Below, one piece after another: positions 16,102 through 59,460 of a stretch of DNA of 59,728 bases. The position numbers and the translations under genes are program-made. The notes under the pieces are model-generated. The model did not search any database. It worked only from the letters and a program-made list of their open reading frames with translations, and was not told the DNA's origin. This DNA comes from a virus. Lineage: Duplodnaviria > Caudoviricetes. The stretch lies in the IMG/VR virus record IMGVR_UViG_3300009104_000024, positions 1-59,728 of that record, one strand, 5' to 3'. Every line of letters begins with the position of its first letter. Position 1 is the stretch's first letter.

Positions 16102-16114
16102 CAAGGAGAAAAAT

Positions 16115-17161: not shown

Positions 17162-17344
17162 ATGGCAACTGCAAAAGATGCTCTTAATGCCATAGAATCA
17201 CATGAAAGAGAATGTAAACTCTTATATAAGAGTATTGATGCCAGGTTAGAAGCTGGTTCAAAAAGGTTTGACAAGCTAGAAGTAATGCTTTGGGCTGTTT
17301 ATCCTTTTATCGTAGCATCAGTTGTAGTTGCTAAATTTATATAA
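17162..17344 (+). CDS. Small coiled-coil protein with C-terminal transmembrane helix
   Basis: HERECKLLY...MLWAVYPFIVASVVV. Confidence 0.65.
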   Translation: MATAKDALNAIESHERECKLLYKSIDARLEAGSKRFDKLEVMLWAVYPFIVASVVVAKFI

Positions 17345-17375
17345 ATAAGTCAAAAATAACAAAAGGATATAGTTA

Positions 17376-17795: not shown

Positions 17796-17809
17796 TTTGG
17801 GAAATATAT

Positions 17810-18199
17810 ATGAATGACAGTTCAGGCAGATTTGGTGGAGACATGGATAGAAATGAGGTCGAAATTGATCTCAATAAATTTATGGAATTATTACAAGAAC
17901 AATCCAGATTAAAGGATAGAATAAGAGAGTTAGAAGATGAAGGAACTAAAAACCCTCATCAAAAATGGATATTTTTAGCACAAGCAGTAGATTCATGGAG
18001 AATATTTCCAAGAGCATTTTTAACAGTGTATATCTTCTTGCTTTATTACACTGTCATGTGGTTTATGGAATTGGAAGCACCTAGTTTTGAACAATCAGGT
18101 TTAATCTCTATTGTCGTGGGTGCAGGTGCAGCTTGGTTTGGTCTTTATGCAGGAACTTCAGGTTCATCTAAAAGTTTTAAAGGTGAAAAAGATAAATAA
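17810..18199 (+). CDS. Membrane protein with two TM helices
   Basis: DSWRIFPRAFLTVYIFLLY and LISIVVGAGAAWFGLY. Confidence 0.7.
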   Translation: MNDSSGRFGGDMDRNEVEIDLNKFMELLQEQSRLKDRIRELEDEGTKNPHQKWIFLAQAVDSWRIFPRAFLTVYIFLLYYTVMWFMELEAPSFEQSGLISIVVGAGAAWFGLYAGTSGSSKSFKGEKDK

Positions 18200-35800: not shown

Positions 35801-38800
35801 ATATCTATGGCTAGAGAACAAGGTATTGTTGGTGGGTTAGGCATAACGCCTTCTGCTGTGCCTGAAGAACCTCGTGGTGAGGATAAATTAGATACTTCTG
35901 ACCCTCAATCAATAGCAGATGAATGGGGTGAAGGTGTTTTAATTACTCCAACTGTATCTTTTAATGATGTTAAATCAGATACAGACCCTATAACAGGTGT
36001 TACGTTGCCTTTGGAAGCTAGACAAAGAGGGGGTTTATACAATAAATGGGAATTAACACCAGAAGAATATGAAGCTGATAGAAAACAAATTTTAGATGAA
36101 TTTTATAGACCAACTGGTATTGGTGATGGAATTGAAAATATTAAAAGTATAGAAGTATTAAAGTGGCTTAGTAAAAATGGACCAACAGAAGATTATAGAG
36201 TTATTGCCAATAGACTATTAGTTCAACAAAGAAAATTAAAAAGAATAGTTGGCATTGAGGGATACTTTGCAATATTTAATGATGAACACGGAGGAAAACA
36301 AAGATTTATTGGTAAAGGTACGGATTACCAAAGTTTTCTTGGTGTTTCATATGCACCTTTTTTAAATGATGGTAGTTATAATGTTAAAGATTATAATCCT
36401 TATGGCGATAGCAAATTAGTACAACAAGTATATTTAAAAGATACCTCTTACACATCTTCACCAGGTCATAATGGTGTAAGTTTTGATACTATGTTGCACG
36501 AATTAGTGCATCAAACTACACAAGCTGCTACTAATTTTTATAGAGGTAGTAGAGCAACTGAACAATCTAAAAAACTTGTAAAAGATTTAGAAGAAGTTAG
36601 AAAAGAATTAATAAAAGAAATTGAAAAAAGAACTGACACTAAAGGTTCTATTGTTGAGGGTCAATATGTCAATGAAGATGCTGAAAATAAATTAAAGAGT
36701 GAATTTGGACAAGACGGAGCAGCAAAAATAGTATATGCAGCAAGTAAAATACAAGAAACTTTAGCAGTTGGATTTACTAATAGATATGCTCAAGACTTTA
36801 TGGATAGTATTCCATATAAAGGAACTAAAAAAACTTTATGGGATAAGTTTACTGAATCAATAAGAAAGCTATTAAGTTTACCTGCTAAAACTAATAGTTT
36901 ATTTTCTGAATTTTTAAGGATAAGTGGAAAATTAACAAATTTATCTAACGCACAATTAGAAGAACTAAATAGAGTTGGTGCTGATTATGATTATGGTCCA
37001 CCTGTTGCTAGCCTTGAAATGTCCGACCCTTCTATAGAATCAGAACTTTCTGATTTAAGAAGAGAACTATATGATGCAGAAAGTTTAGAGTCTGCCGATA
37101 GAGGTTATGTAGATGTAGAGGTAGGCAATCGTAATATGAGAAGAGTACAAAATATAAGAAATAAAATTGAAAGACTTGAAGAACAATTAAAACGAGAAGC
37201 AGAATTAAAACAACCAGTCACACCAGAACAGTTGCCTTTATTTAGTAGAACTCAAAAAGATGAGAAAAAAATAAGAACTATAGCTAGAGAAAATAGAAAA
37301 AGATTAAAGGAAGAATACAAAAATGATCCTGATGCTGTAGATGAAATTATTAAAGAATTTGAAGGCGAAGAATTATTTAGTGATGGTAGTGGTTTTATAG
37401 AAGGAATTACTACAAATAGAGGATATATGGATGACATTCCCTTGTCTTTTTCTTCTGAAAGATTATCTAAAAAAGTATTAGAAGATTATGGTTATGAAGA
37501 AATATTTGAAGGAGAAATGTCATCAGAGTTAAGAGATAAAGATAATCAACAAAATTATTATGTAGATTTAGGACAGAATAAATTTAGAGTTTACTTTAAT
37601 CGTTATGGTAATAAAAGAAACCAAGCGACTATTACTAATCCTACTTTAGATGAGTTAATGAATGAATCATGGTTTGAAAAAGAACGTAGGTCTTCTGACA
37701 TTCCTTTATTTAGTAGAGGACCTAGAGATGAATCGTCAGGTCATTTAGCTGATTATGTGCCTGCAGAATATGGTCCACCTGCACATCAACTAGATATAGT
37801 ATATGGCGATGAAAAAACAAAAGATGGTTATTATCCAGTTAGTTATGGTTTTACATATCCTAAAACTTCTCCAGATTATAGAACAAGAGAATTTACAGTT
37901 TATAGCACAGCTAGAACACCACTAGAACAACAAGAAGAGCGTGAGTTTATAAATAAACTTATGGAAATAAGAGGCAATCCAAATGCAGAAATAACTATGT
38001 ATCAAGCTGCACCACAAAGAGATTTAAGAGAAGGAGATTTAATAACTCCATTTTTAAGTGAAGCTGAAGCTCTTGTAGAAGATTCTAAAGTTACACAACA
38101 AGAAATTAGAGAAGCAGATAGAGCTAGAAGAAGGCAAGAACAGATAGATAAAAAAGGTGCTGTAGATTTACAACAAGAAAGATTGTTTAATCAAATGGAA
38201 GGAATATCAGATATTCTTGGTAGACCTGAAGTTACTCCATCAACAATACATACTTTTAAATTAAAAGCAGGAGATGTTCGTTGGGATGGTAATAATGGTT
38301 GGGCAAGATGGGGTTACTTCCCAAGAATAAAAGCTGTAGAAGATTTACCTTTATTTAGTAGAGCTGCCACAGATACTAAGCCTCCATATATGGACTTTAA
38401 TCGTAAACAGATTAGGAATTTTAGTAGTAATAAAGTTGGTTTTTATGATGGAGTAGAAATACCTTTAACTCATGTTGCACGAATGCGAGTTGAAGATTTT
38501 TTAAAACTTACTACAGCCAATCAAGAGGTAATTGATAATATAATAACAGGAGGTCCAACAGTTGCTTTATCTTCAGAGCCTATGGGCTTACTTCCAGCTT
38601 CTATAAGAAATCCTGATGCTATATTTGACTCAGAAATAGCAGATACTGCAATAATTCCTTCATTACCAAATTTAGAAATTAGAGGAAATGGTCAAGTAAT
38701 TAGCCATGAAGGCAGACATAGAGTTGCATTAATAGGACAAGGAGGTGGTAGAACTGTTCCTGTATTTATAAATTTTCCTGAAGGTAATGTAGAACAAAAT

Positions 38801-41800
38801 ATACCTAATCCTAGTGGTCAAACTTTACAAGAACAAGGTGTTACTTTTTTAAGAAATCAGGAATTTAATAACTTTACTGTTCCTATAAATAGGTTAGGAG
38901 AAATTGCACCTTTACATAGAGATAGTGCCCAAACTAAAGATAAATTAGATTATGCAGTAGAGATTGCTAGTCAGCCTGACTTACTTGCACCCTCTGGAAA
39001 TATACCTTTATTTTCTAGGCAATCTAAAACACCTTCAATAAAAGAACTTCCTGGAGAAGTTTCTGAGTATCGTGATAATTACAATATAACAGATACAGAA
39101 TTACTAAATGCTATAGAAGCTACAGAAATGAGCAGAAAATCAGGAACAAGAGAAAATCCTGGTCAGTTAGATACTACTATAGTAGAAATATTTGAAAACA
39201 ATCCCAACCTTTTAGAAGCTAGTAAAAACTTTCTTAGAAAGTTTACTAATAAAAAAGGTAACTTAATTGTATACAGAGCTTTAAATATACCTGCCTCTAT
39301 GCGTATAAAAAACTATGGGCAGTTTCCTCAAGATATTTACGCAAGTGCAACTATAGACCATAGAGAAGCTAAACAAATAGCAAGTAGTGTAGAAATAAGG
39401 TCAAGAGCTAAAGAAGAAGCACAATCAGAAATACTTAGATTTGAAGTGCCAATGGATAGAGTAAAAGCTTATGTTCCATCTTTAATAGTGGCTGGTAGAG
39501 AGCGATTAATAGAGATGAAAGAACAAGAATTTATTGATGCAGGGATAGAAAGTGAAATGGATGAAGACTTTAATCCTGATGAATATAATGACTACACTAG
39601 AGAACAATACATAGAAGAATATGAAAATGATTTAGATGCTTCTATAGATGAAGCTGAAGTTTTAGTTGACTTACGAGGAATCAAACCAACTTATCAGTAC
39701 ACACCTGGTAGTGGTATAACAGGTAGAGAACCATCTATAACTAGAGATATACCTTTATTCTCAAGAGCCAGAAGATTTACAGGTGAAGCTAATACACAAG
39801 AAAAAGTAGCATTACAAAAGTCTACAGAAATAATTGAAGATTTTGTAAAGAAAACTCCTAGAGGTGAAATACCTTTATACAATACAAATGCCTCTGATGT
39901 TGCTTTAAAAGCTGCGTATGACTATATAAATGACCCTAGTGCTCCTACTATAAATGAACTTCCTAATTACTCTAGAGTTGAAAAAGAAATACCTGAAGAT
40001 TTACAAGGTGTAGTTAATAGAGGTGGGTATGTTGCTCCAAGGAAGCCTTGGTATGAAAGATTAATTAGTGATGTTTCTGACCCTGTAACTAATATTAGAA
40101 AGTTTTTTAAAGATACAAGACAAAACTATATTGATAAGTTAGATAAAGTAGAAAAGAAAATAGCACAAGGAAGTGAAGAGTTTGAAGAAGTAAGACTTTT
40201 AAATAATATAGCCGACACCTCTGCTATAGCTGCATTAAGAATGGCTGATAAAGCTAGAGGTATATTTCAAGGTATGCTTACAAGAGGATTTGCTACAGAT
40301 GTTATTGACGGAGAAGCTGCATTAACAACTACTGAAGAACTAGAAATAGATACAGTATATAACCCATACATTGATGGCGATACAGGTACTGGTGGTTTAT
40401 TACAAATTACTGCTCCTTTATTTTCTGACCCATTAGTAGATTTAGAAGGAATATTTGGAACATATGCCAAATTAAAAAGAGTTCAAGGATTTCAAAAACA
40501 AAATAGACAAGTTGAATCCCCTTTTACACAACAAGATTTAGAATTTATAAATAATATTGAAGCTAACTATCAAGTTGTTGTTGAGGTATATAACAACTAT
40601 CAAAAATGGAACAATAAATTAGTAGACTTTGCACAAGCTAAAGGCTTATTAAATGAAGCACAAGCTACAAAATGGAGAGAAGAATCAACTTACTATCCTT
40701 TTTATAGAGATATGGTTGAAGAAGAGGGTATAACTGCACCAAGAATAGGTGGTGGTTCTTTACCTAATAACCCATTAAATTTAAAACTTAAAGGTTCTGA
40801 AGCAGAAATAAATGTTTCTCCATTAGAAGCTATAGCAAGAAACTCTTTGTCTATTCTTACTGCTTCCATGAAAAATGACGGAGCAACAAAGTTAATAGAA
40901 AGTTTAGCAATTATGGGTGAAGCAGAATACATCACCCCACAACAATTAAAAAATAAACAAGGTGCAAAAACTATATTTGTTTTTGAAAATGGATTTAAAA
41001 AACACTACAACATAGAAGACCCTGATTTATTCCATAGTATCAGAGCATTAGGTGGAGCAGAAGTTGGATTTATAACTAAACTTTTAGCTATGCCAGCTAC
41101 GTTATTAAGAGATACAGTAACTCGTGACCCTGGATTTATAGCAGTAAACTTACTTAGAGATACGCTATCTGCAACTGTAACATCAGGTGTTAATTTATCA
41201 TCACCTTTTACAGGTGGTGATGGATTTGTGCCAATGATAGATACCATTAAAAATATGTTTGGCGACATGACAGACTTAGAAAAGTTTGGTGTTATTGGTG
41301 GATATGATTTCGCTAATGACGAAGGTGATGTTGTTGACTATATGGCACGAATAAGAAGACAACAAGGTCTTACGGCTAACAATGGTATGTCAGCAGAAAA
41401 AGCTTTCTTTTATGTTTGGGATGGTCTTGGTGGACTAACAACAAAATCTGATGGAGCTACTCGTAAAGGTGTGTTTGATGCAGTTTATAAACGCATGAAA
41501 AACACTATTGATGAAAGAACAGGTGAAGTTTACACAGATGCAGCAGCACAATCAGAAGCAGCTTTTCAATCCTTAGAGGTTATAAACTTTGGTCGTAGAG
41601 GACTATCACCAATGTTTAGAGTTATTACGTCTGCAATACCTTTTTTAAACGCTAGAATACAAGGTCTTGACGTTATATACAGGTCATTTAGAGGAACGTA
41701 TTCAGCACAAGATAAACTACAAGAAGGTGAAACTTTAGATGAATTAAAGAACAGAATAATGCGAAGAACTGCATTGAGAGGTGGAACTATTATGGCTTCT

Positions 41801-42781
41801 ACCTTAATTTACTATCTATTAGTTAGTGATACAGAAGAATACAAGGAAGCCAAGAGAGAACTAAGAGATGACAATTGGTTGATACCAACTCCATTTGATT
41901 ACACATTAAAAGTTCCTATTCCTTTTGAGATTGGAATGATGTTTAAGGCACTACCTGAGAGGTTCATAGACCTCGTTCTAGGAGAGAAAGTGTTAGGACT
42001 AAAGGAATCAGTAGAGAAAGACCCTATCGAGTCTATAAGGAGGCAATTAGGAACTTCTGCAAACATACCTTTCTTATCAGGTGACATCAGCATACAAGCA
42101 TTAAAGCCTATTTTTGAAGCTACAATTAATAGAAATTCTTTTACAGGTCAAGAAATTGTTCCTTACTATAAGCTGAAGAGAGAGCCAGGTTATCAAGCAT
42201 CTCCACAAACTAATGAACTAGCTAGAGTTATCGGTGAAGCCTTAAATATTTCACCAACTAAAATTGAGCACGTTATCAATGGATATACAGGAACACTCGG
42301 AGGTTATGTGTTGGATATTGTGGATTCACTAACTAGAACTGCAACAGGTTCTCCATACATACCAAATAATATTTTTAGTAACCCAACTAACTTTGCCCAA
42401 TACCCATTAATTAAAAGACTGGTCGTGGATAATAAAAAAATGGGAGGGTTGCAACAACAGTTCTATGAACTTAGAGGTGAGGTAGATAGAGCCGTTACGA
42501 CTATGAATAGTCTTAAACAAGAAAAAAGGTTTGATGAACTCAGAGCTTATAAGTCTGATGTAAAAGGCTTAATGAATGTCAAAGGCAGAGTAAGAGCAAT
42601 GGAAAGATACTTGGACAATTGGAGGAAGAGAAGAGATAGATTGATGCGTAGGACTGATATATCGGTTATGGTTAAAGCAGAAATGATTCAAGACTTAGAA
42701 GCAGAAAGAGATAAGCGTTTAGCGTTTATACCTGAACTAAGGAAGAAAGCTAACGTGCCTATCCTCCAGGGAGGACTGTAA
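32831..42781 (+). CDS. Large polyvalent protein (ejected): two zincin motifs, ART-like and ParB-like modules, LPD38-like C-terminus
   Basis: HEMIH (35360) and HELVH (36497); HEGRHR; VYRAL..SAT..EAEV; repeated PLFSR linkers; domain names inferred by eye. Confidence 0.75.
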   Translation: MQKVNLPDGRTLKIPNDLSAEKRDELANAVKAEYNIDINEGSLGEWLIDKPKSVVRGLSQMIPTGVKGIAGLTLGSDSDIVKGISDYQRYIATESPLASDPKYRDTFGTKLSEGAGSLIGFGGLSYAGRRLAAKGVLSDKAGRFGVPGSLAVPMGMGEQVDRLEQSRALGEESPGFLAEKTAILAGGVIGLSELAPLERLFRGIPKNALKNPTVQQLLNTRLRSAIATGTAEAIQEAGAGVLQNLTAAGLYSDEIPIFDSALEEFTIGGILGASADLLVNSLANRRSISSQQLRDAETKARDNRTSLQSQDKFARAQEQGMVEEYQEPIIKEKPEIDVPAIVDVAPPDLGVIENPDGQFSVVDYNDLENPILSSHATEVDALLEKNNQQTNYERKVLQVQVDNDTYMMGMPDSDSAKTLGRTVLDPNITQINLSTLIGYDSSISEDLKKELNKEKSATYPAQPYRQMLENKRKNLEKTAKYLESKGLDLKSSFSMPEAKKVLKPKDYNLMLESFANHAFTASEKAGEPSIREDKLDVTIKNIKAIAESKNIELDFKDPAVRYAAKQWTGFEDIPKTRNRGAKELFLARIHSLPAFNSKTKFPDFRPRAYTGVDMANFVASAQDIQFTDADLLVAGPESIRNKPENVKQFLNDLIESGRAKKIKNTNKYELTDDFEYTVARRQEGFNETPDEFRARLERDRSLGKNKLSDEAIDSLVASEEVRQEKVLPPKEIEKKLIDFNETIEEGRTNKFAKELRKKLNKVGLRDTGIVVSNDILSTTTLAETETGQIIFDPRKTRETATEGAVEGEYDRDTDIIFLSLNSVNPDGTATDEQILQRLDKILDHEMIHAFRKKDLITEKEYQYLRNEVKRKKVPTEYDASSKNETFYTRSQRINSGMVRQATSEGRAKEEIEEFLVEEAIAEMYRAREFKPVTPKSKGILNRIVEFFKSMGQAMRVSGYRDSSEIFADIERGKVGARERGQIRTLQELDKISMAREQGIVGGLGITPSAVPEEPRGEDKLDTSDPQSIADEWGEGVLITPTVSFNDVKSDTDPITGVTLPLEARQRGGLYNKWELTPEEYEADRKQILDEFYRPTGIGDGIENIKSIEVLKWLSKNGPTEDYRVIANRLLVQQRKLKRIVGIEGYFAIFNDEHGGKQRFIGKGTDYQSFLGVSYAPFLNDGSYNVKDYNPYGDSKLVQQVYLKDTSYTSSPGHNGVSFDTMLHELVHQTTQAATNFYRGSRATEQSKKLVKDLEEVRKELIKEIEKRTDTKGSIVEGQYVNEDAENKLKSEFGQDGAAKIVYAASKIQETLAVGFTNRYAQDFMDSIPYKGTKKTLWDKFTESIRKLLSLPAKTNSLFSEFLRISGKLTNLSNAQLEELNRVGADYDYGPPVASLEMSDPSIESELSDLRRELYDAESLESADRGYVDVEVGNRNMRRVQNIRNKIERLEEQLKREAELKQPVTPEQLPLFSRTQKDEKKIRTIARENRKRLKEEYKNDPDAVDEIIKEFEGEELFSDGSGFIEGITTNRGYMDDIPLSFSSERLSKKVLEDYGYEEIFEGEMSSELRDKDNQQNYYVDLGQNKFRVYFNRYGNKRNQATITNPTLDELMNESWFEKERRSSDIPLFSRGPRDESSGHLADYVPAEYGPPAHQLDIVYGDEKTKDGYYPVSYGFTYPKTSPDYRTREFTVYSTARTPLEQQEEREFINKLMEIRGNPNAEITMYQAAPQRDLREGDLITPFLSEAEALVEDSKVTQQEIREADRARRRQEQIDKKGAVDLQQERLFNQMEGISDILGRPEVTPSTIHTFKLKAGDVRWDGNNGWARWGYFPRIKAVEDLPLFSRAATDTKPPYMDFNRKQIRNFSSNKVGFYDGVEIPLTHVARMRVEDFLKLTTANQEVIDNIITGGPTVALSSEPMGLLPASIRNPDAIFDSEIADTAIIPSLPNLEIRGNGQVISHEGRHRVALIGQGGGRTVPVFINFPEGNVEQNIPNPSGQTLQEQGVTFLRNQEFNNFTVPINRLGEIAPLHRDSAQTKDKLDYAVEIASQPDLLAPSGNIPLFSRQSKTPSIKELPGEVSEYRDNYNITDTELLNAIEATEMSRKSGTRENPGQLDTTIVEIFENNPNLLEASKNFLRKFTNKKGNLIVYRALNIPASMRIKNYGQFPQDIYASATIDHREAKQIASSVEIRSRAKEEAQSEILRFEVPMDRVKAYVPSLIVAGRERLIEMKEQEFIDAGIESEMDEDFNPDEYNDYTREQYIEEYENDLDASIDEAEVLVDLRGIKPTYQYTPGSGITGREPSITRDIPLFSRARRFTGEANTQEKVALQKSTEIIEDFVKKTPRGEIPLYNTNASDVALKAAYDYINDPSAPTINELPNYSRVEKEIPEDLQGVVNRGGYVAPRKPWYERLISDVSDPVTNIRKFFKDTRQNYIDKLDKVEKKIAQGSEEFEEVRLLNNIADTSAIAALRMADKARGIFQGMLTRGFATDVIDGEAALTTTEELEIDTVYNPYIDGDTGTGGLLQITAPLFSDPLVDLEGIFGTYAKLKRVQGFQKQNRQVESPFTQQDLEFINNIEANYQVVVEVYNNYQKWNNKLVDFAQAKGLLNEAQATKWREESTYYPFYRDMVEEEGITAPRIGGGSLPNNPLNLKLKGSEAEINVSPLEAIARNSLSILTASMKNDGATKLIESLAIMGEAEYITPQQLKNKQGAKTIFVFENGFKKHYNIEDPDLFHSIRALGGAEVGFITKLLAMPATLLRDTVTRDPGFIAVNLLRDTLSATVTSGVNLSSPFTGGDGFVPMIDTIKNMFGDMTDLEKFGVIGGYDFANDEGDVVDYMARIRRQQGLTANNGMSAEKAFFYVWDGLGGLTTKSDGATRKGVFDAVYKRMKNTIDERTGEVYTDAAAQSEAAFQSLEVINFGRRGLSPMFRVITSAIPFLNARIQGLDVIYRSFRGTYSAQDKLQEGETLDELKNRIMRRTALRGGTIMASTLIYYLLVSDTEEYKEAKRELRDDNWLIPTPFDYTLKVPIPFEIGMMFKALPERFIDLVLGEKVLGLKESVEKDPIESIRRQLGTSANIPFLSGDISIQALKPIFEATINRNSFTGQEIVPYYKLKREPGYQASPQTNELARVIGEALNISPTKIEHVINGYTGTLGGYVLDIVDSLTRTATGSPYIPNNIFSNPTNFAQYPLIKRLVVDNKKMGGLQQQFYELRGEVDRAVTTMNSLKQEKRFDELRAYKSDVKGLMNVKGRVRAMERYLDNWRKRRDRLMRRTDISVMVKAEMIQDLEAERDKRLAFIPELRKKANVPILQGGL

Positions 42782-44558: not shown

Positions 44559-44860
44559 TTTTTTTCTCCAATTAATTCTTCAACTTGAGATAACAGTTCT
44601 TGTTCTGTTCCGTATCTCCTCTCAAACTCTTTCTTCCAGGGATGCCTACTCACCCACAAGCCATTAAATGTTCCTTCTCTATGATGCCTATAACATAAAG
44701 GCAAAACCTTGAAGTGTGCGTTCTCCTTAGTCTTGCCTTCTATATGGTGTATATCACAAGGCACAAAGTCGTTACCCTGATTCTTACAAACAATGCACCC
44801 TAATTGACTAACCTTGTCCATATGCCTTTTCTCTTTAGCAGTAGGGTTTCTTCCTTTCAT
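44555..44860 (-). CDS. HNH-type nuclease (Ref/DUF968-like)
   Basis: GCIVC...IHH...LPLC..HH...YGTEQELL. Confidence 0.8.
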   Translation of the reverse strand: MKGRNPTAKEKRHMDKVSQLGCIVCKNQGNDFVPCDIHHIEGKTKENAHFKVLPLCYRHHREGTFNGLWVSRHPWKKEFERRYGTEQELLSQVEELIGEKK

Positions 44861-45192
44861 GCACCATATCTAGCTTGTTCTTTCCTAGCTGATACTTGTT
44901 TAGTTCTCCACTCCTCAAAACCTACCTCTAATCCTTTCAGATTCACCTTTAGAGCAGATAAAGTTCCTTTAGCCACACCTACCCTCAATCTAGCTTGATA
45001 TAACTCCTCAGAGGCTTCTGCGTAGGTTTCCTGTGCTGATGTTGTTTTGATGCCCTCACCTAAAGCCTTTAGCTTTAACTGTGCTTGTAGTTTCTTTACT
45101 TCTGCTTCGCACTTGTAAACCTCATACTCAGTCTTTTCCATTGTCGGAGCAAGACTCCTGATTTGGTGCATCCAAGTTTCTTGTTGTTCCAT
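44857..45192 (-). CDS. Coiled-coil hypothetical protein
   Basis: GGGAG RBS, coupled ORF. Confidence 0.7.
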   Translation of the reverse strand: MEQQETWMHQIRSLAPTMEKTEYEVYKCEAEVKKLQAQLKLKALGEGIKTTSAQETYAEASEELYQARLRVGVAKGTLSALKVNLKGLEVGFEEWRTKQVSARKEQARYGA

Positions 45193-51766: not shown

Positions 51767-51890
51767 TACATTATAGGCAAAATGCTATCAAATTGAAAGC
51801 CACATGAAAAATTCTCAGTAGCTCACATCCATACGGAAAAAAAATATTTATGCGACTGGTATTTTGAGCTACGCCAGTAAACTGCTTCTA

Positions 51891-51906
51891 CGTTTCATGT
51901 GAAACA
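51891..51906. promoter_or_regulatory. parS-like palindrome
   Basis: CGTTTCATGTGAAACA, 14/16 to TGTTTCACGTGAAACA. Confidence 0.7.
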
Positions 51907-51949
51907 TAGACTATCTTAAACGACTATCTTATACGATAAAAAAATGGAT

Positions 51950-51988
51950 AAAAAAAAGGGATGAGTTCTAGGAAAACCCACCCCTTTT
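51950..51988 (-). terminator. Intrinsic terminator
   Basis: AAAAGGGGUGGGUU/AACUCAUCCCUUUU stem with G-U pairs only on minus strand, then U tract. Confidence 0.75.
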
Positions 51989-52042
51989 AACATCTACTAA
52001 CTAGACATGGAGGTTATCTTGTTCTAAGTCTTAACAAGATAT
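51950..52042 (-). ncRNA. Candidate ~90-nt sRNA with anti-Shine-Dalgarno seed
   Basis: Promoter TTGCAT-17-TACAGT (52075-52047), 5' hairpin, AACCUCCAUG, terminator 51988-51950; no ORF. Confidence 0.6.
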
Positions 52043-52078
52043 AAATACTGTAATACTTTCGATTGCATAATGCAAGTG

Positions 52079-52110
52079 TTATCCACAAGTTATTCACACA
52101 GTTATCCACA
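52079..52110 (+). promoter_or_regulatory. Three head-to-tail DnaA boxes
   Basis: TTATCCACA 52079, TTATTCACA 52090, TTATCCACA 52102. Confidence 0.85.
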
Positions 52111-52160
52111 GGTTTTCCAGACTCATCCATAAAAATAAATATTCCTAGTTTTTTGCACGC

Positions 52161-52208
52161 CCACTATATCTTGTGTTGATTAGTTGAGAACACCACTAGA
52201 TATAGACG
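52161..52208. promoter_or_regulatory. Tandem NrdR boxes
   Basis: CCACTATATCTTGTGT (52161) and CCACTAGATATAGACG (52193) fit acaCwAtATaTwGtgt; 32-bp spacing. Confidence 0.75.
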
Positions 52209-52338
52209 GAGGACTTCCTGCGACTGGGAAAATATTTCCCTGGGAGCTACAACAGCTCATCAAAACGTAGCAGTAGGTTAGGTTTCAGATTTCCTACAGG
52301 TAATTTTATCTACCTGTAGTATTTGCTTTTTTCAGACC

Positions 52339-52381
52339 AAAAAAAAAGGCAACAACCACTTATTAAAGTAGTTATTGCCTT
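52339..52381 (-). terminator. Intrinsic terminator closing the leftward early operon
   Basis: 16-bp stem fully paired on minus strand plus U tract. Confidence 0.85.
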
Positions 52382-52426
52382 ATTTATTTTAAAGTTAATT
52401 GTTATGAACCCATTGATGAATTTTAT

Positions 52427-52732: not shown

Positions 52733-52973
52733 CACTCCTTGGAAATGCTTGTATGTCGTCAGGTTCAATATCACAACCTGATATACCAAATTCATGACAA
52801 AGTTCGTAATATGGGTCTCGACAAGTTGCAAAAATATCAGCTTGTCTTTCCCAGTCAAAATTTTCTTCTGCTACGTTTAAAGCCTCATTAAGTTCACTTG
52901 CCTCAACAACTTGTGTGAAGATAGCATTATCTTTGTTGGTTTTTATAACCAACCATTCTGTTTTATTACTCAT
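52719..52973 (-). CDS. Hypothetical acidic protein
   Basis: GGAGG RBS. Confidence 0.75.
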   Translation of the reverse strand: MSNKTEWLVIKTNKDNAIFTQVVEASELNEALNVAEENFDWERQADIFATCRDPYYELCHEFGISGCDIEPDDIQAFPRSDDDE

Positions 52974-53004
52974 AATTTTTCCTCCATTTTAAGTAATAGT
53001 TAGT

Positions 53005-53066
53005 AAAACTAATTTCGACCCTTTTGGGTCATCATCAGGGAAAATACACATTTTCCGATTAGTTTT
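53005..53066 (-). ncRNA. Type III hammerhead ribozyme (extra U after A9)
   Basis: AAAACUAAUC^GGAAAA-UGUGUA-UUUUCC-CUGAUGA-U-GACCC-AAAA-GGGUC-GAAA-UUAGUUUU. Confidence 0.88.
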
Positions 53067-53161
53067 TGTAAATTGAACCTCCACACTTCGTTTCTTAGAG
53101 CGAAACTGAAGGCAAGTTGACCTGGGATATCTCCCAAATCAACCTACCCTTAGAATCGTTT

Positions 53162-54412
53162 CTATGCTACGAGACTATTCTTATCCACATAAATAACTTC
53201 ACCAAAAGGTAAATTATTAGAATAAGAACTTTCCTCCGTAACGCACCATATAACAGGAACTTCAGGCTGAACGTCAGCATCAACCAATCCGAATCCGTCT
53301 GTAAAATAAACGAATGCTTTTACATCCTGGACTTCATCCGAATAATCATTGAAGAGATTAAAAGGAGGATTAAATTCTGTTCCTCCTCCTCCTCTAGCTT
53401 CAAGTTTTACCTCTTCGCCCTGGTCAAGTTCATACACATCCCACCATTCACCATTAGAATTTTTTCTTACGACTGTATCGCAATAACAAACTCTAATTTT
53501 TTCTAAACCACACGATTCAGCCATTGAAATAATTTCAGTAGTGAATATGTTTAGTTCGTCTTGGTCAATTGAACAAGATGTATCTATGGCTATAGCTAAC
53601 TCACCTCCCTGGGAAGATTTAACTTTACTAGGTAAATATAAATTTCTCCAGGTATGACGTTTATTAGGTCTCGCCCACGTTCTATCGTCAGCCATAGAAC
53701 TTGAAAGAAAATCGCTTAACAGTTCATGCCAGTTAAAATTGATTTCCTGTAATTCTTGCATTCTGCGACCTATCGCAGAGCCTGAATCACTTCCTATAGA
53801 TTTCTCCAGTTTGTCAGCTTTAGATACTGCATTCCTGATTTCAGTTTGAAGATCAGACAATTCTGAATCACCTAAAGGTTTTCCTTCTTCGTCTTGAGCC
53901 TGTATGACTTCACCTACTGGCACAGGAAGTTCATCCCATTCAGTAGAGGAAACGTCTATCCCCTCACCTTCATGTCCTGTAATATCATCTACAGTATCTT
54001 GTAAAGAATCATCATCTTCTGCCAAAATTTGATACACCTTTTCAGCAGTCATACCTCTATATTTATTATCAAGTAAACCACCTTCAGGTAATTTCATTCC
54101 TAAATCCCACCTAAGATAAGCATTAATTATATAGTCAGTTGCGTAATTCCATAGAACGTGATGCCTACTACTTCCTTTTCGCAAGGGATGTTCCCATATG
54201 ACGTGGCTAGCTTCGTGAACTAAGACTGCTTGTAATTCCTTAACAGAAATACTTTTGACAAAATCTTTATTCCAAAAAATTCTTTGTCCGTCAGTAGCTA
54301 ACGTATCAAAAGAAGCATCTTCAACCAGTTCTAAGTTGAGCAACATTGAAGCCATACCAATATTACCCTTCATTAGTTTTGCTCTAGCTTTTATAAGTTT
54401 TTGTTCAGTCAT
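53162..54412 (-). CDS. VWA domain protein with N-terminal metallopeptidase (DUF2201-like)
   Basis: ATDG, HEASH, WNYATD; MIDAS-like DTSCS, GGGGT, YFTDG; GGAGG RBS before ATG 54412. Confidence 0.88.
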   Translation of the reverse strand: MTEQKLIKARAKLMKGNIGMASMLLNLELVEDASFDTLATDGQRIFWNKDFVKSISVKELQAVLVHEASHVIWEHPLRKGSSRHHVLWNYATDYIINAYLRWDLGMKLPEGGLLDNKYRGMTAEKVYQILAEDDDSLQDTVDDITGHEGEGIDVSSTEWDELPVPVGEVIQAQDEEGKPLGDSELSDLQTEIRNAVSKADKLEKSIGSDSGSAIGRRMQELQEINFNWHELLSDFLSSSMADDRTWARPNKRHTWRNLYLPSKVKSSQGGELAIAIDTSCSIDQDELNIFTTEIISMAESCGLEKIRVCYCDTVVRKNSNGEWWDVYELDQGEEVKLEARGGGGTEFNPPFNLFNDYSDEVQDVKAFVYFTDGFGLVDADVQPEVPVIWCVTEESSYSNNLPFGEVIYVDKNSLVA

Positions 54413-55358
54413 CTTTACCTCCAAAAGCCTTATTAAAGAAACTTCCTTTAAGGTCTCCTACAGAACTTTCTAAATCATCTGCAACCTTCTTTCGTTTAGC
54501 TTCTCCCAATTCAGTTTCATCTCTAAGAGAATCATAAGAATTGATTGAGGCAAAAACAGAAACAAGACTTTGATGAGCATTAGATATGTCTGCATCATTC
54601 CCTAAAATGTCAGAGTTAATTGAGGGAAGCATATCAATAGACTGTTTTAATTTCTCAAAACTGGTCTTATGAAATGTTTCACCATTCTTTAACTTATCGA
54701 CAATATGATTTACTTGTTCAAGTAAAGCCTCAACAGTAACCTTAAAAACATTTCTTACATTGTTTGCAAGTCTGTTTTCAGTCTCTTGTTGAATGCTAGC
54801 TTTCATTTTGTCAGAGACATTTAAACGAATATCAGAAGATTTAGTTATGTCCTGAATTAGTTCTTTCTTAAAATCAAAAACAAATTTGCTTCTAAGTTTT
54901 TCAACGTCAGGATAATCTTCTTCATTAAATGCAGAGCCTAATTTTCTTTCAGCTACAGAAACAAAAGAATCATAATTTTCAAGAAAACTTTCTGCTTCCT
55001 CAAAAAAATCATCTTTAGCTTCTTGCATTTTCTCGTCTAGCAAATCTAATTGTGTACTTGGACACAATCTCCACCCACTAGTGCTAGTTGAATCAGAATC
55101 CGATTCACTATCGCTCCAGGGAACAGTTAAAGCATAATAGTATTCTCTACGAATCCTATTCGTTATACGTCTGAATATCTTATTAATATTCTCTCCGTAC
55201 ATATGCTTAGAAACGTGCAATGTTCTTTCATCTGCACCTACGTTACTTTCTAACCCTTCTCGTAAACTTTTATCTACCTTAATACCACTAGGATGTTTAA
55301 CAGTTAAACTAACCAGTAATGCTTGTTTAGATAAAAGGTTTTTATTATTTTTATTCAT
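54405..55358 (-). CDS. Helical hypothetical protein (DUF3150-like)
   Basis: GGAGG RBS; between ATPase and VWA genes; family call inferred. Confidence 0.6.
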   Translation of the reverse strand: MNKNNKNLLSKQALLVSLTVKHPSGIKVDKSLREGLESNVGADERTLHVSKHMYGENINKIFRRITNRIRREYYYALTVPWSDSESDSDSTSTSGWRLCPSTQLDLLDEKMQEAKDDFFEEAESFLENYDSFVSVAERKLGSAFNEEDYPDVEKLRSKFVFDFKKELIQDITKSSDIRLNVSDKMKASIQQETENRLANNVRNVFKVTVEALLEQVNHIVDKLKNGETFHKTSFEKLKQSIDMLPSINSDILGNDADISNAHQSLVSVFASINSYDSLRDETELGEAKRKKVADDLESSVGDLKGSFFNKAFGGKDD

Positions 55359-55385
55359 AAACCCTCCAGTCTATATTATTAATAA

Positions 55386-55448
55386 TCTGTTTCGCATGAC
55401 CCATAAATGAACAGGTCGCTCTTCAGTATGGTTAATTCCATATACAGA
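55386..55448 (-). ncRNA. Type III hammerhead ribozyme (canonical core)
   Basis: UCUGUA^UAUGG-AAUUAA-CCAUA-CUGAAGA-GCGACC...GGUC(AU)GC-GAAA-CAGA. Confidence 0.9.
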
Positions 55449-55475
55449 AAAAAACGGAGGGCATTTCTGCCCTCC
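55448..55475 (-). terminator. Intrinsic terminator abutting hammerhead
   Basis: GGAGGGCA-GAAA-UGCCCUCC-G-U7. Confidence 0.8.
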
Positions 55476-55481
55476 ATAATT

Positions 55482-56570
55482 TTATACCTCTAAGTCTTGA
55501 TGCTTAACTTTGAACTCATTGAAAGTTGTTGTTTCAACAAGTTCAGTTCTTGCATTGATTAGAGAACGAACAAAAAATACTTCGTATTCAGGAGTTGGAA
55601 ATTGCTCTATATATTTCAGAGCATTTTCAAAATAACTTTCAACCAAAGAATCGCTAACTTCTTTAATTACAGTTATCAGCGCAACGACTGTAGCAAAATA
55701 TATTCCGTTCTGTTTTTTCTTATCCTTAGCCTTTTCAGGAGAATCAATTTTCCCCTCACAAATTTTTTGCAAGTCAGGAACATCTTCTTTGAGTTGCAAG
55801 AAAGATGCAAATTCAATTGATGCAGTTTCGCCTACATTAATGTCTGCGAATTTCTGTATAAATGAATTTTCAGGATTAGTCTTTAAAGTGCTAGACAATC
55901 TTGTCCAGGAACGAGGGCAAGGCTGAGGAGCAATGACTTTAGGATCAAAAACATTCAACCAGTTAGGCTGATAATTTAAGAATCCTAAAATGTCAGGATG
56001 AACATCATTCTTGACTGCCCAATTGAACCAGTCGTTAGAATCGTGAACGAACTCAATCATTGCACACCTGGAATAGCAATGAGAAGGAATCTTATTAGAC
56101 CCCGCCCTATCGCTAGCCTTATTGGAAGCACAAACAATTACCCAATTACCTTTTCCATTTTCAGGAGTTGGTAATTCATAATCTCCTATTCTTTTCTCAT
56201 ACATAAGTTGAGATAGAACAGTTTGCATTGAATGGTGAGACTGCCCAAATTCATCCAGGAAAAGCATACCTTCTCCACTAACAGGAAGATTACCTAAAAA
56301 GGCTCTCTTCTGTTTGCCTTCCTCAATATAAGGAATGCCTGATAGGTCATAAGACTCATACAAACTACTTCTAAAATCTATCCAACCATATTCTTTTGCA
56401 GTTGGATTGACTTTATCTGTAACCACTTTTCTTCCTTCAGCCAAGATGTCTCGCACCTCTTCGACTATTGCAGACTTTCCAATACCAGTTCCTCCTAAAA
56501 GGAATGGCGTATTGTTAGCCTTTATTTCGCATTGCATCATATACAACGCTTCACTAGGTTTATATTTCAT
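55482..56570 (-). CDS. MoxR-like AAA+ ATPase
   Basis: GGTGIGKS Walker A, LFLDE Walker B, ASN sensor, PRSW. Confidence 0.9.
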   Translation of the reverse strand: MKYKPSEALYMMQCEIKANNTPFLLGGTGIGKSAIVEEVRDILAEGRKVVTDKVNPTAKEYGWIDFRSSLYESYDLSGIPYIEEGKQKRAFLGNLPVSGEGMLFLDEFGQSHHSMQTVLSQLMYEKRIGDYELPTPENGKGNWVIVCASNKASDRAGSNKIPSHCYSRCAMIEFVHDSNDWFNWAVKNDVHPDILGFLNYQPNWLNVFDPKVIAPQPCPRSWTRLSSTLKTNPENSFIQKFADINVGETASIEFASFLQLKEDVPDLQKICEGKIDSPEKAKDKKKQNGIYFATVVALITVIKEVSDSLVESYFENALKYIEQFPTPEYEVFFVRSLINARTELVETTTFNEFKVKHQDLEV

Positions 56571-56616
56571 TTTACCTCCATGAAATAATTATAGTTAAGT
56601 TAGCAGAAATGCTAAC

Positions 56617-56696
56617 ACCAATAGAAAACCTTTTTACAGGCTAGAGATACCTCTATTTAATTTCTTTCGTATTGTTTCAAATACTCTTCAGTTGGT
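56617..56696 (-). ncRNA. Type I hammerhead ribozyme with branched stem III
   Basis: ACCAA-CUGAAGA-GUAUU-UGAAAC-AAUAC-GAAA-GAAA...two hairpins...UUUCUA^UUGGU. Confidence 0.85.
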
Positions 56697-56718
56697 TTAA
56701 TAAACAATATTGAATGCC

Positions 56719-56922
56719 TTATTTAAAATGTAAAAAATTTCTCAACATTGCCCTGTTTCCCTCCCAATCTTCAAAATCCTCTAATTGAAATTCTTTTGCT
56801 ATGTCTAAAGCAGTCAACATTCTTTTGACCGAGGACTTGTTCCATTTTTTGTAATAATTTCTTTCAAGTGTAATTCTTACACCTGTGTCGATAATATCTT
56901 TTTCAATTAAATTTCTAGCCAT
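56719..56922 (-). CDS. Hypothetical protein
   Basis: AAGGAG RBS. Confidence 0.75.
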   Translation of the reverse strand: MARNLIEKDIIDTGVRITLERNYYKKWNKSSVKRMLTALDIAKEFQLEDFEDWEGNRAMLRNFLHFK

Positions 56923-56959
56923 TAGCCTTTCTCCTTATTAATATTTTTTTTTCGATAAT

Positions 56960-57014
56960 TAGTTTCTTGAACCCTATAATTAGGATTCTCTTCAGCACGT
57001 TAATTCGTGGACTA
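56960..57014 (-). ncRNA. Type III hammerhead ribozyme (AA insertion before G12)
   Basis: UAGUC^CACG-AAUUAA-CGUG-CUGAAGA-GAAUCCUA-AUUA-UAGGGUUC-AA-GAAA-CUA. Confidence 0.8.
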
Positions 57015-57088
57015 TCTTATTCAACGACTATCTCAAACAATTTTAAAAATAAAAAAAATAATAAAAAAAAATACAAAAAAAAAGAAAC

Positions 57089-57120
57089 AAAAAAAATGCT
57101 ACTCCGTTAAGAGTAGCATT
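57089..57120 (-). terminator. Intrinsic terminator
   Basis: AAUGCUACUC-UUAACG-GAGUAGCAUU then long U-rich tract. Confidence 0.85.
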
Positions 57121-57131
57121 AATTTCCTCCT

Positions 57132-57533
57132 CTATTTATCTAACCATCCTTCCTGGATAGCTTCGTATTTAGCAAGTGAAATATCCCCACTTCCAAAAGT
57201 TATACAATCCAAGTCAACGTGATAATTAATTGCAGTATCAGAATCTATAACCAGGCTTTTATCTTTAAAATTTAAAACCTGGTTGTAGTTCTTTTGCTGA
57301 ATTGAAATAGGATAAGAAAGAATTTCAAACAGGGAATTTAATCTTTCCCTGGTTGTCCTTGTTGTCCATCCACACAAAGAAAAAGATAATATCTTTCCGT
57401 TATGGTCGTTATCCCAATTAGCGATTTTATGACCATGCAGATAATATCCAAACTCATCTGTATGTGTGTTGGAAATAGTTTTAGTTCTCCTATCTCTAAA
57501 CGCAGAAGCAATAACCCTAGATATATTTCTCAT
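57132..57533 (-). CDS. Conserved phage hypothetical protein
   Basis: GAGGAG RBS; LHGHKIA...GWTTRTTRERLN. Confidence 0.8.
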   Translation of the reverse strand: MRNISRVIASAFRDRRTKTISNTHTDEFGYYLHGHKIANWDNDHNGKILSFSLCGWTTRTTRERLNSLFEILSYPISIQQKNYNQVLNFKDKSLVIDSDTAINYHVDLDCITFGSGDISLAKYEAIQEGWLDK

Positions 57534-57721
57534 TAGGTTTTCTCCTCATAAATACAAGCATAAGCTTCCTCAATTTCAAAATCATCAAGGCTTTCAGGCT
57601 CGTTGCCTTCTGCTACTCTCCATTCATTATGGTCTACTAACCATTTATCTAAATTGTTAGTAGTAGCTACATAGTCACGATTGCCACAGCCGTCATGCCA
57701 ATAAATATTAAATATTTCCAT
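57533..57721 (-). CDS. Hypothetical acidic protein
   Basis: GAGGAG RBS, TAATG coupling. Confidence 0.7.
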   Translation of the reverse strand: MEIFNIYWHDGCGNRDYVATTNNLDKWLVDHNEWRVAEGNEPESLDDFEIEEAYACIYEEKT

Positions 57722-57978
57722 TAGCAAGACTCCTCTATGAATTGAATCAGTTCCTCCAGTTCTTCAGTTCGCTGAATCTCGTCAGGTAAACCTTTAAACT
57801 TTGGAAAGAAATTTTCTAACGCTCCCTGGATAAGAGTTATTTCAGATTCTGTAAAAATCTCATTCAAGTCAACTGCATCCCTATAAGTGTTCGCTTCTTC
57901 CTCAATCGCTTCTTCAAGTTCTTTTGGAATTGATACACTAGCAGTAATACTGCCATTTTCATGGTGTACTATTTTCAT
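57721..57978 (-). CDS. Hypothetical acidic protein
   Basis: GAGGG RBS, ATGA coupling. Confidence 0.7.
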   Translation of the reverse strand: MKIVHHENGSITASVSIPKELEEAIEEEANTYRDAVDLNEIFTESEITLIQGALENFFPKFKGLPDEIQRTEELEELIQFIEESC

Positions 57979-58238
57979 ATTTCCCTCGCTTCTAGTTCTT
58001 CCATAAATTCCCAATCTTCATCATACAACTGATTAATTCTTTCATAATCAACTATGAATTTATGAAGTGTTATTGTTCTGTTATAACCATCTACAATGGT
58101 ATTGCCTTCCTCTCCACTAGGTTTAAAAATCCCAGTATCTAAAAAGTTATTCACATAGTATCTGCCTACACTTCCCTCTAACTGTAAAAATAATCCACTA
58201 TTAACATTTTCTAAATGATTTTCATAAAACTCACTCAT
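57975..58238 (-). CDS. Hypothetical acidic protein
   Basis: GAGGG RBS, ATGA coupling; flanked by 20-bp direct repeats. Confidence 0.7.
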   Translation of the reverse strand: MSEFYENHLENVNSGLFLQLEGSVGRYYVNNFLDTGIFKPSGEEGNTIVDGYNRTITLHKFIVDYERINQLYDEDWEFMEELEAREI

Positions 58239-58468
58239 ATTTCCCTCGCTTCTATTTCATCCTCATCTTTTTTAGAGACAAGAAAATCAGATTCAACAAG
58301 TTGCTCAAGAATATCTTCAGGCATTTCTGCTAGAACCCTTGTAACCTCATTAATCATAAAAGCATAAAGACTATAATCCAAGTCTCTAAATCTTGCACAA
58401 AGTCTGTAATGCAATAAATCCAATGGGGATAATTTTATACTTATAGTTTTCGTTTTTTCTTTATTCAT
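58235..58468 (-). CDS. Hypothetical protein, first gene of leftward operon
   Basis: GGAGG RBS before ATG 58468 (MNKEKTK); the longer GTG extension runs through the ribozyme. Confidence 0.7.
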   Translation of the reverse strand: MNKEKTKTISIKLSPLDLLHYRLCARFRDLDYSLYAFMINEVTRVLAEMPEDILEQLVESDFLVSKKDEDEIEAREI

Positions 58469-58474
58469 AATATA

Positions 58475-58633
58475 GACCCTCCAGTCTGTTTCGTTTTTAA
58501 AATTGGCTAGAGGCAATAAACTTAGATTTGTCTTAACAATGCACGTTTTATATTCGTAGGCATTGACCACATAAATTTATTACCTCACTCATTCAGCTAA
58601 CAGAAGCCACCTGTTAGGACATTGGAGGATGTC
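58475..58633 (-). ncRNA. Extended type III hammerhead-like ribozyme (CUGAAUGA core) sequestering an RBS
   Basis: UGUC^CUAACAG-GUGGCUU-CUGUUAG-CUGAAUGA-GU...15-bp stem...AC-GAAA-CA; CCUCCA pairs with UGGAGG. Confidence 0.72.
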
Positions 58634-58906
58634 ACTACTGTCCGATTATCGTTAACGCCTCCCCAACTTAGATTGTGTTGGTTCTTTGGGTACGCATTTT
58701 GTTTTGAAGCTTTACTTCTATCTTCGTGGGTAATTCTTGAGACCCTCATCTTCAGTTAAGCCCTGTCACGACCTGAAGCACTATCTTGTTCTACTCTATA
58801 AAACCTCCATTGGTTTAATTGAATATTTAATAATACAGGAACACACCATAATAGCTAGCATAATGTGAGCATTACATAACCAGGGAAAAAGGAACATAAT
58901 GCAAGC

Positions 58907-59395: not shown

Positions 59396-59400
59396 CCAGG

Positions 59401-59460
59401 CATAAGACTATCTTAATCAATTATAAGACTACCTTAATCAATCATAAGACTACCTTAATC
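59401..59460 (+). repeat. 21-bp tandem repeat x3
   Basis: (C/T)ATAAGACTA(T/C)CTTAATCAAT units at 59401, 59422, 59443. Confidence 0.9.

Follow-up and report, generated by a model that had tools for sequence, protein, structure and literature searches.

Five putative self-cleaving hammerhead ribozymes ahead of gene starts in the replication and accessory block of an uncultured marine phage

We analysed a stretch of 59,728 nucleotides (nt) from an uncultured marine tailed phage (IMG/VR record IMGVR_UViG_3300009104_000024, positions 1 to 59,728; hereafter the window), the minus strand of which carries five elements with the core motifs of hammerhead ribozymes, each a short distance ahead of a start codon. 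The motifs, their positions, their conservation and their covariation are direct observations. They indicate that the five elements are very probably genuine hammerhead RNAs under selection. It is probable that the elements are self-cleaving ribozymes that process and insulate the transcripts of the minus-strand replication and accessory gene block, and we lean towards processing and insulation as their main role.

Hammerhead cores on the sense strand ahead of gene starts

The five elements, labelled A to E by position, are as follows.

A, 53005-53066, minus strand: type III hammerhead, canonical except for an extra U after A9; predicted cut after C17, 53057/53056
B, 55386-55448, minus strand: type III hammerhead with a canonical core; predicted cut after A17, 55443/55442
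C, 56617-56696, minus strand: type I hammerhead with a canonical core; predicted cut after A17, 56622/56621
D, 56960-57014, minus strand: type III hammerhead with AA between stem II and G12; predicted cut after C17, 57010/57009
E, 58475-58633, minus strand: core variant of type III, located in the leader of the operon; predicted cut after C17, 58618/58617

A first-pass annotation of the window had proposed hammerheads at these five minus-strand positions, and reading the sequence confirmed each of them. The cleavage sites that it gave (53057/56, 55443/42, 56622/21, 57010/09 and 58618/17) all match the ones we recomputed. Every element lies on the sense strand ahead of a ribosome-binding site, and the distances from the 3' end of the motif to the start codon (32 nt for A, 28 for B, 47 for C, 38 for D and 7 for E) stay within the earlier limit of about 50 nt. 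All five occupy gaps between annotated genes or, in the case of E, the leader ahead of the first gene, so that the description 'intergenic' applies to A through D and not strictly to E. Similarly, the CUGANGA core attributed to all five is exact in A, B, C and D, and reads CUGAAUGA in the window's copy of E. The stems are unrelated in sequence, as had been stated, yet B and D have the loop I sequence AAUUAA in common. All five copies have GAAA and the A15.1-U16.1 pair (in D with the AA insertion before G12), and position H17 is C in A, D and E and A in B and C, never G.

We searched the window with a strict descriptor (CUGANGA, a stem II hairpin, GAAA, UH, and stems of at least 4, 3 and 3 base pairs (bp), closed or open for the three topologies). 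It returned only B (type III) and C (type I), at coordinates identical to those of the first-pass annotation. The same rule gave a mean of 0.14 matches in 300 dinucleotide shuffles of the window, with two or more matches in 1.7% of them. Allowing one base after A9 added A; this rule yields three matches where 0.25 are expected, and none of the 300 dinucleotide shuffles reached three. A much looser rule was uninformative (6 matches observed, 3.2 expected, the observed number being reached in 11% of shuffles). An extended descriptor, allowing 1-2 nt at N7, 0-1 nt after A9 and 0-2 nt before G12, recovered all five elements together with three further minimal-stem matches in coding sequence (34949-35052, plus strand; 44853-45065 and 54861-54969, minus strand), which we take as the chance level.

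Cores are kept and stems change in a compensating way in related loci

A query with the protein of the AAA_5 ATPase gene that follows C identified 16 related IMG/VR loci with 83-100% protein identity, and a metagenome scan with the ATPase alignment identified 4 loci. All five elements are kept in the related loci at 85-100% nucleotide identity. Conservation in related contigs had been put forward as a check on the hammerhead assignment, and it came out in favour: the cores are kept, and changes in the stems compensate for one another. The strand is also distinguished, with 87 descriptor matches in the sense orientation and 4 in the antisense orientation across the 16 related loci, and with G-U pairs appearing in the alignments of A and of the D family only when these are read on the minus strand.

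The minimum free energy (MFE) fold of A, with stems of 9, 6 and 5 bp, is the hammerhead fold (z = -4.1). In the alignment of A 99.3% of cells are paired, five pairs distributed over all three stems are changed on both sides, and none of 500 shuffles reaches the covariation score. The MFE fold of B (stem I UAUGG/CCAUA with loop AAUUAA; stem II with a 2-nt bulge) is likewise the hammerhead fold. Here 100% of cells are paired, 20 of 500 shuffles reach the covariation score, and N7 is A, C or U among the relatives. A scan with a B-type pattern returned 14 loci, all on contigs already in the set of relatives, and contributed no added variation. Immediately upstream of B lies a hairpin of terminator type, the T run of which continues straight into stem III of the ribozyme:

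55454-55477, minus strand: terminator-like hairpin of 10 bp with a T7 tail, 3' of the ATPase gene; kept in relatives

C consists of an open stem I (ACCAA/UUGGU), stem II (GUAUU/AAUAC) and a branched stem III. Among relatives its H17 is A or C, and in two of them stem III has lost one base from each strand together. In loci L009 and L010 the core and stem I are kept and stems II and III are entirely different. Scanning with a 14-base pattern from C gave at least 118 stretches. Among the matches listed, 80 loci were parsed, of which 8 form type I hammerheads and 72 do not; among these listed matches, five distinct hammerheads carry other stem II sequences, and in locus L160 the branching of stem III is preserved, with compensating changes. 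The region of C is 96-97% identical among relatives even where the ATPase protein is only 83% identical. A separate hairpin follows the cut site:

56599-56616, minus strand: 7-bp hairpin GUUAGCA-UUUC-UGCUAAC, 5 nt past the cut of C

In seven related loci (L006, L010, L011 and L013-L016) a C-G pair of this hairpin is replaced by U-A, a compensating change, and the hairpin would form the 5' end of the ATPase mRNA.

An invariant AA insertion before G12 marks the D family

D is built of stem I (CACG/CGUG, loop AAUUAA) and stem II (GAAUCC/GGGUUC), both of which appear in its MFE fold. The close relatives alone say little about covariation: 100% of cells are paired, no change is two-sided, three are one-sided and compatible, the shuffle test is uninformative, and N7 is A or U. 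A much larger sample came from the exact 21-nt 5' half of D, which occurs in 48 IMG/VR loci representing 39 distinct copies. The sequence AAGAAA follows stem II in 48 of the 48 loci, and N7 among the distinct copies is U (18), A (11), AU (8) or C (2). Stem II takes the forms GAAUCC/GGGUUC, GCAUCC/GGAUGC, GUGUCC/GGGUAC, GGUUCC/GGGAUC and GAUUCC/GGGAUC. In the pair count for the family, which uses 30 distinct rows, all cells of stem II are paired (100%), two stem II pairs have changed on both sides, and one pair of stem III takes five pair types; the covariation score is reached in 0 of 500 shuffles. Six pairs are changed on both sides when the three helices are tested for compensating changes. 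Stem I of the family is uninformative because the search pattern fixed it. D represents a conserved subclass with a two-A bulge adjoining G12.

The surroundings of the D-family copies fall into two groups. Of the 39 distinct copies, 20 have CUCC in the 25 nt that precede the cut and GGAG past it. The other 19, the window's D included, are preceded by a T-rich tract and two copies of AGATAGTC. In the window, a T-rich spacer of about 80 nt separates D from another terminator-like hairpin:

57095-57120, minus strand: terminator-like hairpin of 11 bp with a trailing T run, 3' of the gene at 57132-57533

In loci L026 and L057 a D-type hammerhead stands ahead of a gene starting MFKPSEA, which resembles the window's ATPase (MKYKPSEA). 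A D type thus precedes an ATPase-like gene elsewhere and an unrelated C type precedes it in the window, and ribozyme lineages are therefore interchangeable before the same gene.

Two observations concern the DNA around D. The 9-mer AAGATAGTC (or AAGGTAGTC / GAGATAGTC) is clustered at three intergenic sites on the minus strand, 59400-59456, 57010-57034 and 51909-51930. The first site consists of three 21-nt direct repeats, and each of the other two holds two copies after a long T-rich tract; hammerhead D, in the 5' strand of its stem III and at its cut site, is overlapped by the copy at 57010-57018. These clusters may be an operator or promoter motif. A promoter between the terminator-like hairpin and D was also considered and set aside: a consensus scan found none there, and promoter-like matches in the region numbered 16, compared with 22.2 in shuffles.

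The leader element E pairs a ribosome-binding site with its complement

In E, stem I is CUAACAG/CUGUUAG and GAAA lies at 58492-58489. The core of the window's copy has one extra base between A6 and G8, as have 7 other aligned copies, and is canonical CUGANGA in 8 of the 16 aligned copies. Stem II is closed by 2 bp around an insert of about 100 nt, a long covarying hairpin. Overall 99.3% of cells are paired, six pairs are changed on both sides (three in stem I and three in the stem II insert), and none of 500 shuffles reaches the covariation score. An interaction of 5 bp is possible between UGGCU in loop I and AGCCA, which is invariant, in stem II, with 95% of cells paired and no variation. A scan with the 16-mer before the cut site gave 38 loci, comprising 20 ribozyme loci (14 distinct copies) and 18 unrelated chance matches; among the ribozyme loci is a recombined form, with one stem I joined to another stem II. 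The 2-nt form of N7 recurs in two unrelated ribozyme lineages, in copies of E and in 8 of the 39 distinct D-family copies.

Stem III of E contains the ribosome-binding site of the first gene:

58619-58630, minus strand: 5' strand of stem III of E, holding the anti-Shine-Dalgarno sequence AUCCUCCA, directly 5' of the cut
58473-58489, minus strand: 3' strand of stem III of E, holding the Shine-Dalgarno (SD) sequence GGAGGG (58482-58477) of the gene starting at 58468

The 11 pairs of this stem, arranged in two helices, are all invariant and 100% paired. The MFE fold of E contains stem I, the long insert, and AUCCUCCA paired with UGGAGGGU, the ribosome-binding site of the 58468 gene.

Further upstream in the same leader, at 58726-58747 on the minus strand, there is a conserved hairpin that reads GAGGG...CCCUC in relatives and GAAGG...CCUUC in locus L011, and has an A-A mismatch in the window. 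The leader segment 58721-58790 was considered as a sixth hammerhead and ruled out, as the relatives have no CUGANGA or GAAA there.

Ribozymes lie at the boundaries of exchangeable gene cassettes

Homology between the window and its relatives breaks off just past the ribozymes. In 14 of the 15 loci that cover the region it ends at 56952-56956 (D ends at 56960) and restarts at 56633-56721, around C. Most loci have two further ends of homology, one past E at 58447-58473 and one past A at 52957-52997, with a restart at the next ribozyme or gene. From the position of these breaks we conclude that the ribozymes bound swappable gene cassettes. The genes concerned are the following.

56719-56922, minus strand: gene for a 67-residue protein, between D and C; replaced by other DNA in most relatives
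55482-56570, minus strand: AAA_5 (MoxR-like) ATPase gene, 3' of C
54405-55358, minus strand: DUF3150-like gene, 3' of B
53162-54424, minus strand: DUF2201 metallopeptidase/VWA-like gene, 3' of B

Relatives also carry hammerhead-like elements additional to those of the window (L003 3460-3519, L007 1942-2023 and L010 1530-1631). The one in L003 is a canonical type I hammerhead with stems of 5, 5 and 9 bp, located at the start of a 300-nt insertion.

A proposed model for processing and insulation

In the mechanism suggested by these features, each element would fold into a three-helix junction and cut its own transcript after position 17, 7-47 nt ahead of the start codon. The upstream RNA would keep a 2',3'-cyclic phosphate and would often end just past a terminator-type hairpin. 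The downstream mRNA would receive a 5'-OH and a structured 5' end, formed by the ribozyme body in the four type III copies and by the separate hairpin in the type I copy. RNA with a 5'-OH is a poor substrate for 5'-end-dependent ribonucleases (RNases). Each gene or cassette would gain a defined leader independent of the upstream sequence, a combination of insulation and processing. In E, where stem III consists of the ribosome-binding site paired with its upstream complement, the cut would separate the mask from the site. Cleavage in vivo, with the effects on stability and translation that the model entails, is what we infer from the sequence.

The first-pass annotation had proposed that an early polycistron is processed into separately stabilised mRNAs. 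The block may be an early operon, to judge from the neighbouring genes, and such processing is plausible. The idea is not new: the same was proposed for clustered prophage hammerheads (Perreault et al., 2011; PMC3088659), which may serve to turn long phage transcripts into shorter mRNAs.

Observations that weigh against the processing model

Several results speak against the elements being active ribozymes with this role, beginning with the comparison to Rfam. The first-pass annotation had suggested a search with the Infernal hammerhead models as a check, and this had a negative outcome: none of the five copies reaches the gathering cut-off of RF00008, 48.5 bits, the best being A (34.3 bits) and B (24.8 bits). 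A search of the whole window found no family at its gathering score, either hammerhead or another ribozyme class, and a search of 6 kb at an E-value of 10 or less found no hammerhead. Against the window's own genome RF00008 gave no match, and RF00163 gave one 9.7-bit match at 57767-57791, outside all five elements. Searches of small windows covered the five elements. RF00008 was the top family both for A (81-nt search; E-value 1.8e-6, full model, with the extra U as an insertion) and for B (79-nt search; E-value 8e-4). Both align across all 54 positions of the model with the core intact. C gave only a partial match to RF00008, at 17.2 bits and in the wrong topology, and D and E (the latter in a search of 175 nt) gave no hammerhead match in Rfam.

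The gathering cut-off is the curators' threshold for one model and not a biochemical criterion. In addition, A scores 34.3 bits in 81 nt, yet goes unreported in the 6-kb and whole-window searches at an E-value of 10 or less, because the speed filters, and not the model, drop it. In larger searches the default Rfam filters miss all five copies, and counts of phage hammerheads in viral metagenomes are therefore probably too low.

The remaining difficulties concern individual copies. In B just one pair is changed on both sides. The AA insertion of D beside G12 is not among the core variants, A6a, U13a and others, described in the portion of PMC3088659 on which we draw. The extra base after A6 in the window's E is an insertion of the A6a type, and the one A6a-insertion hammerhead for which a test is reported in that portion of the paper had low activity. 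D and E may be slower on account of their core insertions and the low activity of the A6a form; they are unlikely to be dead, since all their other catalytic bases are conserved. The duplex between the SD strand and the 5' cleavage product of E has a predicted free energy of -16.0 kcal/mol at 37 C and -22.0 kcal/mol at 20 C, and so cutting alone need not free the ribosome-binding site. Finally, the terminator-like hairpins directly upstream of B and D complicate the picture of a single polycistron, as termination there may leave little read-through RNA to process.

Alternative explanations

The main role of the elements could instead be that of gates on translation, with stem III, or an extension of it, pairing the SD sequence with an anti-SD sequence just 5' of the cut and translation of the next gene starting only after self-cleavage and loss of the upstream fragment. 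We regard this as possible rather than probable, and it can coexist with processing. It accounts for the arrangement in E, where AUCCUCCA and UGGAGGGU pair around the cut, and it is consistent with the CUCC and GGAG that flank the cut in 20 of 39 distinct D-family copies; a synthetic SD-masking design works in E. coli, according to the part of PMC5052635 considered here. However, the layout is clear only in E, the stems III of A, C and the window's D having no anti-SD sequence. The SD/anti-SD pairs never vary, which makes covariation uninformative about them, their duplex is predicted to be stable after cutting, and at 35% G+C GGAGG/CCUCC may be no more than the cheapest strong helix available to the genome. 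A comparably tentative alternative places the function in the DNA: blocks of a ribozyme plus an SD sequence would be shared homology for cassette exchange, with RNA activity secondary or serving only to make inserts expressible. The ends of homology just after D (14 of 15 loci) and after E and A (most loci), the placement of D-type ribozymes ahead of many different genes in 48 contigs (including homologues of the ATPase that has a C type in the window) and the 300-nt insertion in L003 that opens with an extra type I hammerhead all fit this view, as does the statement of Perreault et al. (PMC3088659, in the part used here) that the flanked genes are not constant. On the other hand, compensating changes and conserved catalytic bases reveal selection on the RNA fold and not on DNA identity alone, and the junctions showed neither a recombinase site nor any repeat structure. 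Mosaic phages without ribozymes, moreover, commonly have breakpoints at gene starts.

It is improbable that some or all of the copies, above all D and E, are look-alikes that no longer cleave and persist as plain hairpins or protein-binding sites. Their core insertions and the absence of Rfam matches for D and E would be explained in this way, and the recurrence of AAGATAGTC, which overlaps the cut site of D, at two other intergenic clusters suggests a DNA or protein site. Nevertheless, the catalytic bases outside the insertions are invariant while the stems covary over 48 (D) and 20 (E) loci, the variable position is N7, the one that the family leaves free, and its 2-nt form recurs in two unrelated lineages. 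Least credible, and in our estimation very unlikely, is that pairs of ribozymes excise the intervening RNA for a ligase to join the 5'-OH and cyclic-phosphate ends into circular or spliced RNA. The genes at 56719-56922 and 55482-56570 do each lie between two ribozymes, and the possibility was raised by Perreault et al. (PMC3088659), who nonetheless sought such products and found none ('data not shown'), as stated in the section of the paper cited here. Furthermore, no RNA ligase was identified among 33 window proteins scanned against Pfam, and the ribozymes are of mixed types, I and III.

Processing and insulation may also be one side of a wider function. We put forward, speculatively, that in this group of marine phages a hammerhead and the next ribosome-binding site constitute a portable module that is at once an RNA insulator and unmasker, a source of DNA homology for cassette swaps, and home to a new active core subclass. 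If so, at the RNA level the module would cut off upstream RNA and in many copies sever an anti-SD sequence, such that any gene placed behind it would be expressed in a standard way; at the DNA level its conserved sequence would provide the shared homology for cassette exchange between phages. Engineered ribozyme insulators would then have a natural counterpart that forms the joints of a gene-cassette system. Its active cores would include a previously undescribed subclass, in which AA precedes G12 and a 2-nt N7 is tolerated.

Relation to known systems

Prophages often carry multiple hammerheads flanking single genes or short blocks, the identities of which are not constant (PMC3088659, as far as the cited portion goes). 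The clusters of Perreault et al. (2011) resemble the present one in that mixed types lie close together, intergenically and on the sense strand, flanking changeable genes. In those clusters pseudoknots between loop I and loop II are common, and rare core insertions include the A6a type. The present cluster has the same character, with five hammerheads in 5.6 kb and the cassettes after D, E and A replaced in most relatives. It differs in belonging to an uncultured marine phage, in having five copies in that distance with no type II, and in including the D lineage with an invariant AA before G12, absent from the variants in the part of the 2011 paper cited. Compared with that account, what is new here is the AA-before-G12 subclass and the recurrent 2-nt N7, both minor, and the clear link to cassette boundaries. 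The locus is a compact test case: a single gene block combines five ribozymes that between them have two topologies and three core forms. Its relatives supply, as natural variants, compensating changes and pairs with and without the insertions for study at the bench, and the links to cassette boundaries, terminator hairpins and masking of ribosome sites provide testable ideas on function. The purpose of genomic hammerheads in bacteria and phages was still to be defined in 2019 (Weinberg, Weinberg and Hammann, 2019; PMC6765202, section 13).

The HHphage ribozyme of haloviruses HF1 and HF2 is a parallel to E, being a variant core a few nt ahead of the first gene of an early polycistron (E is 7 nt from its start codon). 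The halovirus hammerhead lies 13 nt ahead of an early helicase gene, with the 5' end of a transcript mapped to within 3 nt of its cut site (PMC3088659, same portion). Unlike in E, its insertions are near C3 and stem I and are linked to high salt, and its 5' end was mapped, whereas E is known from sequence. In terms of Rfam families, A and B fit Hammerhead_3 (RF00008) over its full length at scores below threshold, C fits in part, and D and E are unmatched by Hammerhead_3 or Hammerhead_1 (RF00163).

The SD-masking hammerhead and twister switches of PMC5052635 share with E a ribozyme in the 5' leader and an SD/anti-SD pairing in a stem; in the part of that study cited here, expression from such synthetic ribozymes rises 5- to about 100-fold when they are active. 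Those switches are engineered and tested, whereas the phage elements are natural and known from sequence alone, E being the only one in the window with the SD-in-stem layout. A eukaryotic parallel, and only a parallel, is provided by fungal virus leaders in which hammerhead self-cleavage is needed for the initiation of translation (2026; PMC13725137).

Two further systems resemble the proposed process. RNase III processing of T7 early mRNA cuts between cistrons and leaves stable, hairpin-ended mRNAs, and it needs a host enzyme and double-stranded sites; in the present phage, by contrast, the RNA would cut itself, leaving 5'-OH and cyclic-phosphate ends. RiboJ is an insulator in which cleavage by a leader ribozyme removes variable upstream RNA.

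Genomic context

The IMG/VR record looks complete (CheckV 100%) and has a G+C content of 35%. Its plus strand carries the terminase, capsid and tail genes. The minus-strand block at about 42.7-58.6 kb encodes a Sak-type annealing protein, a RecA-dependent nuclease, the AAA_5 ATPase, the DUF3150-like protein and the DUF2201 metallopeptidase/VWA protein, and it also holds many small genes that belong to no known family. The large terminases of Phage DSL-LC04, phage 023Pt_psg01 and Pelagibacter phage HTVC027P share 58-60% identity with that of the window; the replication modules of these three phages are unlike the window's. The hammerhead descriptor had no match in the parts of these genomes that were scanned (HTVC027P 1-50000, 023Pt_psg01 1-20000 and DSL-LC04 14000-40000), and blastn of a 5.8-kb region against a phage collection also gave no match. 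The sequencing runs found to hold the hammerhead region are 20 DNA runs from marine or seawater metagenomes, with no RNA sequencing run among them.

The genes at 53162-56570 on the minus strand form a trio of AAA_5 ATPase, a protein with a weak match to DUF3150 (under the Pfam cut-off) and the DUF2201 metallopeptidase/VWA protein. The PHROGs label of the last, 'HNH endonuclease', is not backed by Pfam domains. On the plus strand, an open reading frame (ORF) at 32831-42781 encodes 3316 amino acids and has an LPD38 (large polyvalent protein associated) domain close to its C-terminus. Three close copies of a sequence like TGTGGATAAC, resembling a DnaA box, lie at 52078-52125, within a stretch of about 660 nt (51767-52426) that has no minus-strand ORF of 40 amino acids or more; this stretch may be a replication origin.

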